A stretch of 64,000 bases of DNA from Glaucostegus cemiculus (Eukaryota), in assembly GCA_976551045.1 (NCBI GenBank), contig CDPCPM010000010.1, positions 2,170,001-2,234,000 of the forward strand, written 5' to 3'. Made by a program: the position numbers and the translations under genes. The notes under the pieces were generated by a model. The model made no database searches and was not told the origin of the DNA. It worked only from the letters and a program-made list of their open reading frames with translations. Of the stretch, positions 983-45,368 are shown piece by piece. Position 1 is the stretch's first letter; the number at the start of each line of letters is the position of its first letter.

Positions 983-1370
983 GCTTCTTTCCGCAAGCCA
1001 TCAGAACTGCAAACTCTCTCAACCCTCCATCTTCCTTTGTTAACACTAAGAGATGCTAGGTGTACAGAAATGCACCAGCACTTTAGATGCCAACACCAGC
1101 CCGTTCACTTTAAGAACTATTTATTTATTTACTGGCCATTTTTAATTTAATCTGCGTAATAATTCAATTTCAATCTCCATAGCTTCTAATGTGTAATGTT
1201 TTGTACTGTGTATTCTGCCAAGTGTGTATGTGTCTCTCTGTTGGCTGTTATGTTATTCTTTTTTTATGGGACGAGCACCTGAGGAGGACGGTATCTCGCT
1301 CCTATGCATACTATGTATGTATATGGTTGTGACAATAAAACTGATCCTGATTCTGACTCTGATTCTGATT
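981..1370 (+). mobile_element. Rex1/Babar LINE 3' end (5'-truncated)
   Basis: Starts with SFFPQAIR-coding sequence, then 3'UTR, AATAAA and a (CTGATT)n tail. Related to 5495-5967 and 39660-39870. Confidence 0.8.
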
Positions 1371-5494: not shown

Positions 5495-5967
5495 CTGAAT
5501 CAGAATCAGTTTTTATTGTCACTTCCACATACCCATTCAGCGTGCATGGGAGTGAAATACCGTACTCCACAGATCAAGGTGCTGGACACATTAAAAAAAA
5601 CAATGAGAGGCGCAAAGACAGAAAGACATTAATGACATTGGAACCGCAAAAATTAAATAGCGACTTGAGTAAACATTCTTAGAGTGAGCGTACTGAGGCA
5701 GCAGTCAATGAACATTTGAAGTGCTGGTGCATTTCTGTACGCCTAGCATCCTTTGGTGTTGGCGGGAGGGATGGAGGGATGAGGGAGTTCATGGTTCTGA
5801 TAGCTTGTGGGAAGAAGCTATTGCACAGTCTGGTAGTCCTTGCCTGGATGCACTGGAGCCTTCTTCCGGATGGCAAGAGTGTAAAGAGGTGGTAGGAGGG
5901 GTGAGAAGGGTCGGACATTATGTTTGTGGCCTTTCTGACACAACTGAAACATTGTGCATAAGATGGT
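5495..5967 (-). mobile_element. Rex1/Babar LINE 3' fragment
   Basis: ORF 5679-6041 contains IMSDPSHPSYHLFTLLPSGRR...ARTTRLCNSFFPQAIR, the characteristic Rex1/Babar C-terminus, followed by AATAAA and a CTGATT tail. Confidence 0.88.
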
Positions 5968-37371: not shown

Positions 37372-37804
37372 AGTCTTATGAGGATAGGTTGAGCGAGTTA
37401 GGGCTTTTCTCTTTGAAGAGAAAGAGGATGAGAGGTGACTTGATAGAGGTGGACAAGATGATAAGAGGTATAGACTGAGTGGACAGTCAGAGACTTTTTC
37501 CCAGGGCGACAACGGCTAACACAAGGGGGACATAACTTGAAGGTGACTGGAGGAAGGTATAAGGGGGATGTCAGGGGTAAGTTTTTTACACAGAGAGTGG
37601 TGGGTGTGTGGAACGCACTGCCGGCAGAGGTTGTGGGGGCAGATACATTAGGGACATTTAAGAGACTCTTAGATAGACACGTGAATGATAGAGAAATGGA
37701 GAGCTATGTGGGAGGGAAGGGTTAGATAGATCTTAGAACAGGATAAAATGTCGGCACAACATTGTCGGCCAAAGGGCCTGTACTGTGCTGTAATGTTCTA
37801 TGTT
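37372..37804 (+). mobile_element. CR1 3' end fragment
   Basis: ORF 37537 reads ...GDVRGKFFTQRVVGVWNALP...FKRLLD, with a TGTTCTATGTT tail. Confidence 0.9.
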
Positions 37805-38208
37805 CCAATTATATTACTCTGACCTCGGAGGACTTCGGAGGACTTCAGAAACTGCTAAGTATTTTTCTCTATTTTTTTTATTAAAGTGTAAGTGTAGAGT
37901 AAGATTTTTAACAAGGGTGTAAGATACTAGTGTTAAGTTATTTTTAGTAGGGTTATATAAGCTTTAAGGGGTCGAGTGAGGGCTGCACTGCGCAGGCGCC
38001 ATGCGGGCAGCTTAAAAAGCAACCAGCTTCTAGAGCGGGCAGCAATGGAGCGGGCAGCGGAGTGAGGGGGGAGCAGAGTGTTCGGGCTTTGGCTCAAGGG
38101 ACTTCGGCTTGAAGGGGCGAGGCAGGGGAGTTACTGGTAAGTAAAGGTAAGGCTTACCTGTTGAAGTTACATAGTTGGACAAACCAGGTTTAAGGGGAAC
38201 TAGTTAAG

Positions 38209-39171
38209 ATGGAGGGCATGGTGCAGTGCTGCAGCTGCTTGATGTGGGAGGACGTGGACCCTGTTGAGGTCCACGTTGGCCACGTCTGCAGTAAGTGTGT
38301 GAGGCTGGAGGAACTTTGGCTCAAAATTGATGAGCTGGAGTCACGGCTTCAAACACTGCAGAGCATCAGGGAGGGAGAGAGTTATGTAGATGCGGCACAT
38401 CAGGAGACGGTCACCCCACTTAGAGCAGATACTTCAGGGGGCCAGGTAGTAGATAGCTGGGTGACTGTCAGGGGAGGGAAAGGGAAGGGGAAAACGAATA
38501 GGCAGACAGTGCAGAGAACCCCGGAGGCTGTTCCCCTCAATAACAGGTTTTCAACTTTGGAAACTGTGGAGGGGGATAGCCTGCAGGGACCAAGCACTAG
38601 TACCCAGGTCACTGGCACTAGGACCAGTACTACTGTTCAGATGGGGAAGAAGGGGAAGAGAAATGCAGTGGTGATAGGGGACTCGATAGTCAGGGAAACA
38701 GATAGGAGATTCTGTGGAAGTGAACATGAGTCCTGGATGGTATGTTGCCTCCCAGGTGCCAGGGTCCGGGATATTACTGATCAGGTTCACAGGATTCTCG
38801 AGCGGGAGGGAGAGCAGCCAGAAGTCATGGTTCATGTTGGTACCAACAACATAGGTAGAAAGAGGGATGAGGTCCTGCAAAGGGAGTTTATGGAGCTAGG
38901 CAGAAAGCTGAAGACCAGGACCTCAAGGGTAGTAATCTCAGGATTACTACTGGTGCCACGTGATAGGAAAGGTAGGAACAGGGCGAGGTGGCAATTAAAT
39001 ACGTGGCTGAGAAAGTGGTACAGGGTAGAAGGTTTTAGATTTTTGGATAACTGGGACCTCTTCTGGGGAAGGTGGGACCTGTACAGAGAGGACAGGTTAC
39101 ACCCCAACCAGAGGGGGGCAGATATCCTTGCAGCACGGTATGCTTGGTTGGTTCATGAGAGTTTAAACTAG
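38209..39171 (+). CDS. CR1 ORF1p: Cys-rich/coiled-coil N-terminus plus SGNH(GDSL) esterase-like domain, 320 aa, intact
   Basis: CCSC..CSKC, then a heptad-rich segment and SGNH blocks VIGDSIVR, CLPGARV, VHVGTNN and DRLHP. Confidence 0.9.
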   Translation: MEGMVQCCSCLMWEDVDPVEVHVGHVCSKCVRLEELWLKIDELESRLQTLQSIREGESYVDAAHQETVTPLRADTSGGQVVDSWVTVRGGKGKGKTNRQTVQRTPEAVPLNNRFSTLETVEGDSLQGPSTSTQVTGTRTSTTVQMGKKGKRNAVVIGDSIVRETDRRFCGSEHESWMVCCLPGARVRDITDQVHRILEREGEQPEVMVHVGTNNIGRKRDEVLQREFMELGRKLKTRTSRVVISGLLLVPRDRKGRNRARWQLNTWLRKWYRVEGFRFLDNWDLFWGRWDLYREDRLHPNQRGADILAARYAWLVHESLN

Positions 39172-42100
39172 TTGGCGAGGGGGATGGGAACCAGGAGGGC
39201 AGGTCAGAGGATGTAGAGGTTACAGAAAAGGCAGACCTAACAGACAGAGTGGCTCTGAGGAAGGAGAAGCAGAGTACAGGCCAAAATAGTAAAAAGGTGG
39301 ATAAACTAATCAAGCAAGACAAAGGAAACCAGCTTAGATTAAAGGAGGAGTTATGCGGGAACAAGTCGACGTGTAGTGAAGATGGTAAGAAGGACAGGCG
39401 GGTGGAAGGTAAGGATAATTTAGAGATCAATAGAAGGTGCCGGAGGCGAAGGAGCCGGAGGTGGTCGGACTGTGGGCCGGGGGTTGTTGATGGTCTGTGG
39501 GCCCTGAGGTTGTAGGACTGGGGGGGTTGGAGGTGGTCGTCGGTGCGGGGTGAGGCAGGGGGGCTGTTAATGTTTTGATGTTTTTGTCCAGGTGTCCTTT
39601 GTTGTCTTTGATGTCTTTTGCACATGTATACGTGTAAGTGAAAATCGATAAATCGATCCTGAATTTAAGTTCAATCCCCTTAGCTTTTAAGGTGTAATGA
39701 TCTATACTATGTATTCTGCCAAGTGTGTATGTGTCTCTGTTGGTTGTTATGTCATTTTTTGTATGGGACGAGACCATGAGGAGGACGGTATATCGCTCCT
39801 CTGCATACTTTGTATGTATGTGGTTGTGACAATAAAACTGATTCTGATTCTGATTCTGATTCTGATTCTGAAGTTCATCAATATCTGTAGTTGATGCTGT
39901 TCTAAAAGTACTGTATTTTAATGCACGTAGCATTAGGAATAAGGTCGATGACCTAGTGGCACAGCTACAAGCTAAAAAATATGATATTGTGGCAATCACC
40001 GAATCATGGCTTACTGACGGATGTGATTGGGAACTGAACATCCAAGGGTATACGGTGTATAGGAAGGATAGGAGGGTAGGCAGAGGGGGTGGTGTAGCCC
40101 TGATGGTCAGTAATAATATAAAATCGATAGAAAAGAAGGACATAGGGGTGGAAGAAGTGGAATCCTTATGGGTGGAGCTAAGAAATAGCAAGGGTAAAAG
40201 GACGCTAATTGCAGTTATATATAGACCCCCTAACAGCAGCCGGGAGGAGGACTATAAGATACAGTTAGAAATAGAAAAGGCGTGTCAAAAGGACAATGTG
40301 AAGATAATTATGGGGGACTTCAACCTGAAGGTAGATTGGGAAAATCAGCGAGGAGGTGGATCACAGGAAACTGAGTTTGTAGAATGTCTACAAGATGGCT
40401 TTTTGGAGCAACTTGTAGATGAACCCACCAGGGGATCAGCCATTTTGGATTGGGTACTGTGCAATGAACCAGAGCTGATTACGGAGCTAAAAGTAATGGA
40501 ACCATTAGGAACCAGTGATCACAATATGATTGAACTTGGAGTCAAATTTGGAAAGGAGAGGCTCATAACTGGTGCACATATATTGCAATGGAACAAGGGA
40601 AACTACAGCAGTATGAGAGAGGAACTGTCTCAAATCGATTGGAAGAGTAAGCTAGCAGGTGGGACGGTGGAGCAGAAATGGATTAAGTTTTTACAAGAAA
40701 TAAGGAAGGTGCAGGATAGGTATGTTCCATGAAAAAAGAAAGTTCTGAATGAAAAAAAGGCACATATGTGGGTAACGAGAGAGGTTAAGGCTAAGATAAG
40801 AGCAAAAGGGAGGGCCTACAAGGTAGCAAAAATAAGTGGGGAAACTGAGGATTGGGAAACATTTAAAAACCTGCAGAAAGAAGCTAAGAAGGTCATTAGG
40901 AAAGAAAAGATGAATTACGAAAGGAAATTGGCAGATAACATTCAAACAGATACTAAAAGTTTTTTTAAATAAATGAGGTGTAAAAGAGAGACACGGGTTG
41001 ATATAGGACCAATTGAAAATGGTGTGGGAGAGATTATAATAGAAGATACAGAGATGGCAGAGGAACTAAATAAGTATTTTGCATCGGTCTTCACTGTGGA
41101 AGATACCAGCAATATACCAGATAGACAGGGGTTCCAGGGGATTGAACTGAGTACAGTTGAGATTACTAGGGAGAAGCTGCTAAGGAAGCTAAGTGGATTA
41201 AAGACAGATAAGTCACCCGGACCGGATGAGGTGCACCCTCAGTTTCTGAAGGAGGTGGCTTTAGATTGTAGAGGCATTAGTGATTATTTTCCAGGAGTCA
41301 ATGGACTCCGGCATGGTTCCGGAGGACTGGAGAGTAGCGAACGTAATTCCACTGTATAAGAAAGGTGGGAGGCAGCATAAAGGTAATTACAGACCAATTA
41401 GTTTGACGTCAGTAGTGGGAAAGATACTGGAATCGATCCTCAAGGATGAGGTTACGGAATACCTGGTGATTCAAGACAGGATAGGTCCAAGCCATCATGG
41501 TTTCGTTAAGGGAAGATCTTGCCTGACCAACCTATTGGAGTTTTTTGAGGAAATCTCAGGTAGGGTGGATAAGGGAGAGGCAGTGGACGTTGTGTATTTA
41601 GACTTTCAAAAGGCCTTCGACAAGGTGCCGCATCAGAGGTTGATTAATAAGATGAGTACGCATGGAATTACAGGAAGGATATTAAAATGGGTCGAGCATT
41701 GGCTGGTGGGCAGAAAGCAACGGGTAGGAATAAAAGGATCCTGTTCTGGATGGCGACCGGTTACTAGTGGTGTCCCGCAAGGGTCGGTGTTGGGCCCGCT
41801 ACTTTTCACTTTATATATTAATGATTTGGATGATGGAGTAAATGGTTTTGAAGCTAAGTTTGCAGATGACACCAAGATTGGCGGTGGAGCAGGGAGTATA
41901 GAAGAGGCAAGAAGTTGCAGAGAGACTTGGATAGTTTAGGTGAATGGGCAAAGAAATGACAGATGAAATTCAATGTTGACAAATGTGCTGTAGTACACTT
42001 TGGCAAAAGAAATGAACGGGCAGATTATTATCTAGATGGGGAGAAAATTGGAAGTACGGAAGTACAAAGGGACTTGGGGGTACTCGTGCAGGACACCCTA

Positions 42101-42697
42101 GAAGTCAACCACCAGGTCGGATCGGCGATAAAGAAAGTGAATGCTATGTTGGCGTTCATTTCGCGAGGTATAGTGTATAGAAGTAGGGAAGTGATGATGA
42201 GGCTCTATGGAGCACTGGTACGTCCTCATTTGGAATACTGTGTGCAGTTTTGGGCCCCACACCTTAGAAGGGATGTGCTGATGTTGGAGAGGGTTCAGAG
42301 GAGGTTTATAAGGATGATTCCTGGTATGAAAGGGCTTACCTATGATGAGCGTTTATTGGCTCTTGGACTGTACTCATTGGAGTACAGAAGAATGAGGGGG
42401 GACCTCATAGAAGTGTTTAGAATGTTGAAAGGAATGGATAGAGTAGATGTGGATAGGCTGTTTCCCTTGGTGGGTGAGTCCAAGACTAGAGGGCACAGAC
42501 TTAGAATCAGAGGGAACCAGTTTAAAACAGAGATGAGGAGAAATTACTTTAGCCAGAGGGTGGTGGAGTTGTGGAATTCTCTGTCACATACAGCTGTAGA
42601 GGCTCAGTCAGTGGGGGCATTTAAAGGGGAGTTGGATAGGTACCTAATTAATCAAGGTATCAAGGGATATGGGGATAAGGCTGGAAATTGGGGATAG
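39159..42697 (+). pseudogene. CR1 ORF2 (AP endonuclease plus reverse transcriptase), disabled
   Basis: [58 protein letters not shown]. Stops at 40730, 40970 and about 41958, frameshifts near 41265 and 41910, and an insertion at 39437-39873. Confidence 0.92.
39437..39873 (+). mobile_element. 437-bp nested insertion with a Rex1-type 3' end
   Basis: The 3' ~210 bp resemble 1160-1370 and end in AATAAA plus (CTGATT)5. GAAG is present at 39433-39436 and 39870-39873; excision restores the ORF2 frame. Confidence 0.85.
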
Positions 42698-43774
42698 ATA
42701 TGTTATCTTTTCTCTTCTTCTCATGGAGCAGACTCGAAGGGCTGAATGGCCTACTTCTGCTCCCTTGTCTTGTGATCTTGTGATATTCTATGTTTTAGAT
42801 ATAGTAGCCATTAATATAAATGAGAACCACTAACTATTTTAAAATATAAAATACAAGCAATAATTGGTTTTGAAATTAAGAGGATCATGAAGTAAAGAAA
42901 CAGCACCTTTTACAGAGCACAGGCTACAAGCCCACAGCAGAAGGCCACTCAAGAGATATGGTTACTAAACTGACATGATCATGAGGCATTCTCATATGCA
43001 TTGGCCAAATGTATAGAGAATGAAGTTGTATTAATTGGTCTATAACAAACCAGGCATCAGATACCTTCAGCTAAAACAACTTGCACCATTGTGAAAGAGA
43101 TCCAGGAATTTTCATTATATAGATCTTCAGCTTGTTTTGAACTGTTATCAAATTTGTTTAATGACAAGCCACATATGAAGCCTGAAGGAACAGTGTCGCA
43201 TGTACAAAGCTCAGAAATAAAGGGCAGTTTTAAAGAGCTACCATATACTTAGGCCTCATCTGCAAGCAGAAATCTTACTTCATTCATAAGTTCCCTACTC
43301 AACAACCCCACCCACAGCCAAAAATCCCTGTTGGGTTTTAGGTCCGGCTGTCTCTAGCAGTAGTTTGAATTCCGTAGGCAGCAAGAGAGAAAAGCAAACA
43401 AATGGCAATGGAGATTTTTGTTCAGCATCAACATTTAATTTAATAACTTTAATTTCATAATACCTTATCACAACATTGAAACACCTCCAAGTTCTTTACA
43501 TGCTGAATTACTTCTGGAATGATTTCACTGCCAATTTTAAAGTAGATTTAAATTAGAAGATTTCCGACTGGGGTAATGCTGGTGGCTGGTAATTTTTGTC
43601 AACTTCTTATGGACTGCCACAACTTCTGGGAAGCTCTGCTGACAATGCCACAAAGAATGAACGGATCCACCCTGAAATAAATGAGCATGTTTAAACCATG
43701 CATTAATGATGGGAAAACACTAATTAACATTGTTCCCATCATCAACATCAAAGATGAGATTGCTGCAACAGAAG

Positions 43775-45294: not shown

Positions 45295-45368
45295 GTTCAC
45301 TTGCTGTTACGGGATGGCCATGGGAACTGGCGTTCACTTGCTGTTACGGGATGGCCATGGGAACTGGC
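45295..45368. repeat. Perfect 37-bp tandem duplication
   Basis: GTTCACTTGCTGTTACGGGATGGCCATGGGAACTGGC twice. Confidence 0.97.

Follow-up and report, generated by a model that had tools for sequence, protein, structure and literature searches.

CR1 elements very probably use a −1 ribosomal frameshift to translate ORF2 as a fusion with ORF1. The stretch of DNA analysed here (64,000 nucleotides from Glaucostegus cemiculus, hereafter the window) contains a decayed CR1 LINE of shark/ray type, the ORF1 of which terminates U_UUA_AAC_UAG and gives a protein ending …HESLN* (Table 1). The original prediction placed the heptamer in ORF1 phase directly before the UAG, had the −1 frame open at the TGA just upstream and pointed to G-tracts behind the heptamer (GGGGG-AT-GGG), and all three are borne out. 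Beyond that TGA the −1 frame translates as EFKLVGEGDGNQ…. It had also been claimed that this frame runs stop-free for about 100 codons once a 437-bp insertion is removed and that it holds no AUG until ALMV; in the window copy we find LKVLYFNARS at codon 103 with no earlier stop, and the first in-frame ATG (40103-40105) lies beyond the endonuclease N and E motifs. A heptamer and a stop in a single copy would be a weak case taken alone. Within the window, a canonical heptamer precedes 21 of 3511 stop triplets on the forward strand and 18 of 3500 on the reverse (about 0.6%, the chance rate), and the bare heptamer is not enriched (one exact among 14 matches at no more than one mismatch; shuffle mean 7.5). 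Because a heptamer before a stop arises by chance at this rate, the case for a signal rests on conservation.

Table 1. Features of the CR1 element and its ORF1-ORF2 junction (window coordinates).
Feature	Position	Strand	Remarks
CR1 ORF1, 320 aa: Cys pairs and coiled-coil-like region (N-terminal), SGNH esterase	38209..39171	+	Domain matches
TGA shutting the −1 frame upstream	39156..39158	+	ORF1/ORF2 overlap of only 4 codons in the window copy
Slippery heptamer U_UUA_AAC (TTTAAAC in DNA)	39162..39168	+	In phase with the ORF1 frame
−1 linker, first part (LVGEGD…EINR)	39168..39436	+	Stop-free, charged, low-complexity; resumes at 39874
ORF1 stop UAG	39169..39171	+	Adjoins 3′ end of heptamer; UAG also in all 11 related intact junctions
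Conserved G-run GGGGG-AT-GGG, candidate stimulator	39179..39188	+	10-nt spacer from heptamer
Later SINE-like insertion, 437 bp, (CTGATT)n tail	39437..39873	+	Outside the frameshift signal
Linker remainder and AP-endonuclease domain	39874..40732	+	PF03372, E 5.5e-14; LKVLYFNARS at 39902
Rest of ORF2, including reverse transcriptase	40733..42697	+	PF00078, E 9.4e-28
3′ UTR with inverted repeat (about 42725-42764) and short tail	42698..42794	+	Sequence inspection

The element has the architecture required of CR1 subgroup 7, with a Cys-pair/leucine-zipper region (the zipper judged by eye) followed by an SGNH esterase in ORF1. The esterase matches PF13472 (E 1.9e-12), the ORF1 profile matches the LINE ORF1 esterase of PDB 4c1b (E 3.5e-39), and C27, C30, GDS and DxxH are kept in the ORF1 alignment; ORF1 also matches a Pristis pectinata protein (72%). 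ORF2 encodes an AP endonuclease and then a reverse transcriptase (PF03372, PF14529, PF00078), as expected of CR1, and no protease domain able to process a fusion was found in it. The window copy is dead because its ORF2 carries a premature TGA (40730-40732), a second stop (near 40970) and two changes of frame (near 41262 and 41940). CR1 3′ ends consist of a hairpin and a short tandem tail, without poly(A); the window element finishes with an inverted repeat and a TTCTATG-type terminus, both judged by eye. The sequence TTCTATGTT at 42786-94 matches 37796-804, a pair that may represent either a target-site duplication or a CR1 tail common to both places. In an endonuclease tree built without curated, named references for CR1 or L2, the window element falls with ray, frog and bird-type sequences, separate from L003 and L011 (100/100).

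The insertion that splits the linker is flanked by a GAAG duplication (39433-36 / 39870-73), and we identify it as a repeat from a second, 88% copy at 1161-1370 of the window and from its (CTGATT)n tail. An insertion-free joint is seen directly: two contigs from run X1 link 39436 and 39884 through a single intervening letter, removing a net 446 bases and preserving the same frame as removal of 437, so the joint is not merely the choice made in the original prediction. Loose ends past 39302 in runs X4, X6 and X9 carry on in the −1 frame as GLKCIYLNAR and belong to a relative with a shorter linker.

At the DNA level, the heptamer and UAG are present in 11/11 related loci with an intact junction, as UUUAAAC in nine, GUUAAAC in L006 and GGGAAAC in L009. 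Among 12 junctions the zero-frame X_XXY_YYZ is canonical in 11 and of the equine arteritis virus GUU type in one, and the −1 frame is closed at most five codons upstream of the heptamer in nine. Few heptamers shift mammalian ribosomes more readily than UUUAAAC and GGGAAAC (PMC5009743), and equine arteritis virus tolerates GUU in its slip site (PMC3542737), according to the available text of both papers. Endonuclease identity to the window is 35-41% in the six related loci tested. This DNA sample is thin and clumped, representing about five independent lineages with three loci sharing one dataset prefix, and it provides one example each of GGGAAAC and GTTAAAC, the other support for GN and KN ends coming from proteins only. 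A phase-conserved heptamer with an open −1 frame, which the original prediction proposed to look for across CR1 relatives, was found in those reached, including swaps to GGGAAAC and GUUAAAC. The decayed copy L031 retains the heptamer, lacks the stop and reads on, and the heptamer is absent from three L2-like esterase LINEs. Two other contig loci were discarded, L036 because it resembles an unrelated bacterial esterase and L037 because it stops short of the ORF1 stop. We found no relatives of ORF1 in viral contigs, where none of 56 pattern matches aligned by tblastn with ORF1 or the endonuclease, and all 56 were attributed to chance.

The C-termini of homologous proteins follow the same rule. 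LN ends 41 of 65 phmmer matches to ORF1, and among 150 cluster representatives (47 left out as short or long) 103 terminate where expected. Of these, 69 finish in LN (54), GN (12) or KN (3), which are three of the four dipeptides permitted by X_XXA_AAC; the other 34 end differently (five in some other xN, 29 in a residue other than N). Named hosts of LN-ending ORF1s include sharks, rays, coelacanth, turtles, lizards, a snake and a swallow. The residue before the dipeptide covaries, in these protein sequences, as the heptamer predicts: before LN, where the preceding codon must be able to end in U, K/E/Q/M/W are rare (1/90 versus a neighbouring-position mean of 14%; binomial P 1e-5, overstated since the rows are related), and they precede GN in 9/12. 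The esterase tree implies several L/G/K switches, with KN and GN as sister pairs and one LN within GN. A requirement that ORF1p end in Leu-Asn, with ORF2 produced another way, would explain the near-invariance of L319 and N320 across vertebrate ORF1s in the alignment. It does not explain why the junction Leu codon is always TTA, which makes up 3/113 to 24/78 of the Leu codons in five ORF2s, why Leu is swapped for Gly or Lys and never for Ile, Val, Met or Phe (no IN, VN, MN or FN end among the 103 representatives), or why L2-like esterases terminate without LN. The swaps run from heptamer to heptamer (GGGAAAC and GUUAAAC; GN and KN ends), which protein-level constraint leaves unexplained, and on this sequence evidence we regard it as largely refuted and extremely improbable.

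The same data bear on a slip confined to the P site, in which peptidyl-tRNA-Asn would move from AAC to AAA while UAG occupies the A site, yielding the same fusion. Such a slip would suit the invariance of A_AAC_UAG in 12/12 junctions, with the stop always adjoining, but it needs no first triplet, yet TTT changes to GGG as a block and the upstream codon is constrained. Moreover, six representatives have KN at the expected place and then read 12-14 more residues before stopping; the KN lineage can thus do without a stop next to the heptamer. We consider this mechanism very unlikely.

Downstream, the endonuclease lies in the −1 frame of the heptamer in 10/10 junctions that reach that far, with linkers of 35-107 codons, nine of which are stop-free in this frame; the other two frames hold 0-10 and 2-16 stops. 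Two proteins, P0067 (Hypanus) and P0093, read esterase-FKL-linker-endonuclease as a single chain; either could be an indel copy or the result of a gene-model correction, so we take them as evidence of frame continuity and nothing more. The claim of an AUG-less −1 frame stands for the window copy and L001 and fails as a family trait, with an in-frame AUG before the endonuclease in 8/10 linkers; this had been named as evidence against frameshifting and counts in part as such, although the AUG position is variable. The N-termini of 120 ORF2 proteins were left out of this comparison, as AUG and caller-assigned starts are indistinguishable in them. These AUGs could serve termination-reinitiation, whereby ribosomes would terminate at the UAG and begin anew in the −1 frame, on an AUG or some other codon close by, to make a separate ORF2p. 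Both L1 and SART1 are documented to use this route, that of L1 being described as AUG-independent (PMC5972666, PMC10275272, PMC5009743, in the text available), and four of 11 junctions (L005, L007, L010, L014) have an AUG 2 nt past the stop. However, the same codon is GGC, AGG, GTG, GCG, AAG, TCG or TGG in the remaining seven, including the close relatives L012 and L015, and UGGGA occurs 40-90 nt upstream in only 2/12 junctions, a pattern that falls short of a TURBS or stop-start signature. Reinitiation also fails to predict the heptamer-to-heptamer swaps or that the base at −7 should be constrained. We therefore judge it unlikely; where a lineage has an AUG 2 nt past the stop, it could operate alongside frameshifting.

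A run of at least four G begins 7-12 nt behind the heptamer in 11/11 junctions, at exactly 10 nt in eight, versus a background of 3.2%. In pseudoknot-free fold models, no conserved stem-loop was found (z-scores −2.2 to +1.7 across 11 junctions, −1.25 for the window, with structures that disagree), and no coronavirus-like pseudoknot or hairpin was detected 5-9 nt downstream. No Rfam family was found at the junction, the one match being attributed to chance. Pairing of the G-run with the window 3′ UTR (−19.9 kcal/mol) was rejected because the 3′ UTR ranks first as partner in the window but not in L007 or L014, both of which extend to their 3′ ends; no long-range partner common to the junctions was found. 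Given the lack of a conserved stem-loop or pseudoknot, the CR1 signal falls outside the classical RNA-structure class of frameshift signals. G4Hunter scores at the junctions are 1.16-2.40 (top 0.6-5.3% of each element) and ViennaRNA favoured a quadruplex in only 3/11, so that a G-quadruplex is a weak option in these models. G-runs are also sites for hnRNP F/H, and most junctions have YAG followed by G or A, as would suit a splice acceptor at CTAG with ORF2 made from spliced RNA and the G-run acting as a splicing element. Splicing is nevertheless highly improbable: there is no polypyrimidine tract (upstream pyrimidine share 0.26-0.53 in 12/12 junctions), AAA immediately precedes CTAG, and the ORF1 phase and heptamer swaps are left unexplained. 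A G-run at about 10 nt resembles the placement of a protein-stimulated motif of arterivirus type; by analogy, PRRSV requires a spacer of 9-11 nt to its protein-bound motif (PMC4937337, available text).

Under the frameshift model, CR1 mRNA would be decoded in the manner of a retroviral gag-pol message. The majority of ribosomes would end at UAG and free ORF1p, whereas a smaller fraction, carrying tRNA-Leu at UUA and tRNA-Asn at AAC, would step back one base onto UUU_AAA, decode CUA rather than the stop, and then translate a flexible linker of variable length followed by the endonuclease and reverse transcriptase. The resulting fusion of about 1,350 aa would read …ESLN-LVGEGD… or …ESLK-LVGEGD… at its junction, and the arrangement would hold ORF2 at a low level relative to ORF1 and keep the enzymes attached to the ORF1p multimer. 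Stimulation would most likely come from the G-run, single-stranded and some 10 nt downstream, either protein-bound or as a weak two-tier quadruplex, with the adjoining stop perhaps assisting slippage. The Gag-Pol-like fusion originally proposed is supported by the conserved phase, the swaps and the −1 continuity, from which we infer slippage. A broader scenario, to which we assign rather less than an even chance, is that the entire CR1 lineage with an esterase, sharks to birds as well as deeper relatives, has frameshifted to a Gag-Pol-like reverse transcriptase fusion for hundreds of millions of years, stimulated by a protein on the G-run, possibly ORF1p itself, and not by a hairpin, and that its sister L2-like esterase LINEs may have arrived at UGA-C readthrough as their solution.

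In the chicken, CR1 is more abundant than any other interspersed repeat, with over 410,000 fragments (11.8%; PMC11835228, available text), and named relatives of the window element range from sharks to reptiles and birds. The production of LINE ORF2p is a long-standing question that the reviews consulted answer with reinitiation. If our model is correct, a major vertebrate LINE clade has converged on a retroviral strategy, and annotation of CR1 ORF2 would change to have no true start codon and an N-terminal ORF1 fusion, which would also guide expression of CR1 enzymes. The broader scenario would further place a protein-stimulated frameshift within a chromosomal vertebrate mobile element, and binding of ORF1p at the G-run would constitute an autoregulated switch. 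The junction would be a compact frameshift cassette without structure, suited to a standard reporter.

The accessible text on CR1 subgroup 7, type IVB ORF1 (zf/lz and esterase) describes the same ORF1 architecture, an APE-RT ORF2 and vertebrate hosts, and the words 'frameshift' and 'overlap' occur nowhere in it (Metcalfe & Casane 2014, PMC4120745). In the literature searched, with key older papers outside reach, we found no report on the translation mechanism of CR1 ORF2 or on frameshifting in CR1; in one paper retrieved, the passages on frameshifting concern ALV. L1 and SART1 are likewise bicistronic LINE mRNAs requiring low-level ORF2, but they make a separate ORF2p, across a 63-nt spacer and a UAAUG overlap respectively, and no slippery heptamer is described in the sources available. 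For Dictyostelium TRE5-A and TRE3-A, a review available in part states that ORF2 needs a −1 frameshift (PMC5911963); these are APE-RT non-LTR elements like CR1, of a different element group and host, and the excerpt mentions no esterase ORF1. The −2/−1 frameshift of PRRSV nsp2 depends on nsp1beta and PCBP at a C-rich motif (PMC4937337, available text) and, like that of CR1, has a short unstructured homopolymer-rich motif 10 nt past the slip site; the CR1 motif is G-rich, not C-rich, and the likeness is one of resemblance only. CR1 differs from viral −1 frameshifting (coronavirus, arterivirus, retroviral gag-pol) in that no stem-loop or pseudoknot was detected at 5-9 nt, the stop adjoins the heptamer and no protease domain was found, but it shares with these systems the same heptamers (U_UUA_AAC, G_GGA_AAC and G_UUA_AAC) in the same phase and a common logic of joining a structural protein to a polymerase.

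In the window's CR1-type LINE, ORF1 ends AGU UUA AAC UAG, which places the predicted heptamer U_UUA_AAC in ORF1 phase directly before the stop. As also predicted, the -1 frame opens after the TGA at 39156-39158, is stop-free into LKVLYFNARS once the SINE-like insertion is removed, and contains no early AUG in this copy, the first ATG lying at 40103. Canonical heptamers precede about 0.6% of the window's stop triplets, and a single copy therefore proves little. The closest named relative of ORF1 is a sawfish protein (72%), with many further shark and ray matches, which makes a cartilaginous fish the probable host. Domain searches detected endonuclease and reverse transcriptase in ORF2, which carries stops at 40730 and near 40970 and is further disrupted by two frame changes and one SINE. 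The element was apparently inserted at the tail of the CR1 fragment upstream, with TTCTATGTT at both 37796-804 and 42786-94.

Coordinates of the CR1 copy and of neighbouring features in the window
Feature	Position	Strand	Basis
CR1-type LINE, near full length, decayed	37805-42794	+	
ORF1, 320 aa, SGNH esterase	38209-39171	+	domain search
Heptamer U_UUA_AAC	39162-39168		
3' fragment of another CR1, immediately upstream of the element	37474-37804		
Insertion in the linker, young SINE-like family with (CTGATT)n tail	39437-39873		
Same SINE-like family	1161-1370		
Same SINE-like family	5497-5571		
37-bp tandem duplication, two copies, perfect	45295-45368		

Besides its tail, the insertion shows a GAAG duplication, and a second copy (88%) lies elsewhere in the window. 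An insertion-free joint was recovered when four of 17 listed sequencing runs were compared: X1 contigs connect 39436 to 39884 across a single letter (net 446 removed, frame kept), and loose ends behind 39302 in X4, X6 and X9 read on in the -1 frame as GLKCIYLNAR. Relative to the X1 joint, the window copy has 9 extra bases 3' of the SINE (39874-39883), which include ATCAATA, a repeat of 39426-39432, and leave the frame unaffected. The SINE-like body has heavy coverage in X1 and essentially none in X4, X6 and X9; the family has no tRNA-like match in Rfam.

An ORF1 alignment yielded 35 metagenome loci and two genome-contig loci, of which we examined the 22 whose match approaches the ORF1 end; scanning all 37 for the motif added no junction. 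The junction is intact in 11, while six end before the stop, three are L2-like, one is an unrelated esterase and one (L031) is decayed, with heptamer kept and stop absent. Conservation of the heptamer in phase, as originally predicted, is borne out by heptamer-TAG in all 11 (TTTAAAC in nine, GTTAAAC in L006, GGGAAAC in L009), although in L007 the phase rests on homology because ORF1 itself is frame-broken. These loci are clumped, four bird-type in one clade and three with a common dataset prefix, and represent about five independent lineages; in six, the endonuclease is 35-41% identical to that of the window. UUUAAAC and GGGAAAC are ranked among the shiftiest heptamers on mammalian ribosomes in a review (PMC5009743), and the equine arteritis virus slip site is described as tolerating GUU (PMC3542737). 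The open -1 frame likewise recurs: the -1 frame of the heptamer holds the endonuclease in 10/10 junctions reaching it, behind linkers of 35-107 codons that are stop-free in nine (stops in the other two frames number 0-10 and 2-16), and the frame is closed at most five codons upstream of the heptamer in 9/12 junctions. Splicing fits worse than slippage and is highly improbable. The predicted absence of AUG does not extend to the family, as an in-frame AUG precedes the endonuclease in 8/10 linkers.

Reinitiation after the ORF1 stop could then make ORF2, and four junctions (L005, L007, L010, L014) have an AUG 2 nt after the stop, as reinitiation would want; however, that codon is non-AUG in the other seven, including the close relatives L012 and L015, and the UGGGA motif is present in only 2/12 junctions. 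Reinitiation fits worse than -1 slippage, and we consider it unlikely.

Covariation at the ORF1 C-terminus points the same way. In a protein, Leu, Gly and Lys replace one another poorly, but they are three of the four residues possible for the XXA codon in X_XXA_AAC. LN ends 41/65 ORF1 matches. A profile search covering 1.84 billion representatives listed 150, of which 103 terminate where expected, after exclusion of 20 that are short and 27 that are long: 54 end in LN, 12 in GN, three in KN, five in other xN and 29 otherwise, and none of these 103 ends in IN, VN, MN or FN. About a third thus depart from LN/GN/KN, some being L2-like or probably decayed. Six further representatives have KN at the expected place, followed by 12-14 more residues. 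The heptamer requires that the codon before LN can end in U, and K/E/Q/M/W stands there in 1/90 sequences against a neighbourhood mean of 14%, P values being inflated by relatedness; before GN it is 9/12. In the esterase tree (74 rows, each at least 180 aa) the ending switches several times: KN groups as sister to GN, L009 among the latter, and a single LN is placed within GN. Conservation of this end by protein constraint fits worse than tandem slippage and is highly improbable; a P-site-only slip at the stop also fits worse, and is very unlikely. A clade within the GN-ending ORF1s (100/99; P0252, P0274, P0281, P0306, P0331) ends FF[RH] or FLG and could have switched to a U_UUU_UUx slip site.

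LN endings occur, among others, in named proteins of coelacanth, turtles, lizards, a snake and a swallow. L006, L009 and the GN/KN protein clades are esterase-bearing CR1-like elements branching apart from named vertebrate ones; this ORF1 type, described as exclusively vertebrate within the Jockey group (PMC4120745), may therefore have a wider host range. Shark-type CR1 proteins P0007 and P0073, on short contigs filed under Pseudomonas aeruginosa and Carnobacterium maltaromaticum, probably reflect host contamination, and CR1 ORF1 sequence within ray gene models (P0001, P0046, P0047, P0067; RPS24, TMEM204 and HAO2 isoforms) represents either exonisation or annotation artefacts. In the L2-like esterase LINEs L003 (stop 1334), L011 (stop 1818) and L002 (stop 1170), ORF1 ends TGA-C (TGA CAA / TGA CAT), a candidate for stop-codon readthrough. 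In L003 and L011 the frame is open past the TGA through the endonuclease (1027 and 1039 codons). Their first Met comes at codons 77 and 50, just ahead of the endonuclease, and reinitiation there is as likely as readthrough.

With heptamer sequence, phase, covariation and frame continuity directly observed, we infer that tandem -1 slippage is very probably the mechanism: a minority of ribosomes would slip on the heptamer, bypass the UAG and produce a fusion of ORF1, linker, endonuclease and RT, roughly 1,350 aa long. The signal is real and deeply conserved, and the comparative case it makes for -1 frameshifting in this major vertebrate LINE clade is strong. No report of CR1 frameshifting was found in the literature searched, and an earlier remark may exist in CR1 papers beyond it; CR1 is unmentioned in the first 300,000 of 449,034 characters of a 2016 frameshifting review, and two papers on this ORF1 type (PMC4120745, PMC3905857) contain no mention of frameshifting. 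Reviews attribute L1 and SART1 ORF2 to reinitiation (PMC5972666, PMC10275272, PMC5009743), while Dictyostelium TRE5-A and TRE3-A are reported to need a -1 frameshift (PMC5911963), so that a precedent for frameshifting exists among non-LTR elements.

The CR1 signal is one without a classical RNA stimulator. We found no conserved stem-loop 3' of the heptamer (z -2.2 to +1.7, in pseudoknot-free models), no long-range pairing partner common to the junctions and no Rfam match to the junction. The G-tracts originally noted there do recur, a run of at least four Gs beginning 7-12 nt behind the heptamer in 11/11 junctions with enough sequence, and exactly 10 nt behind in eight (background 3.2%). This run changes codon phase in L006 and L009, an indication of a motif at the RNA level. 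By G4Hunter score the junction ranks within the top 0.6-5.3% of its own element, and a quadruplex is the preferred fold in only 3/11. The G-run may act as a frameshift stimulator, and its spacing is like that of the protein-stimulated PRRSV frameshift site, for which a 10-nt spacer is described (PMC4937337).
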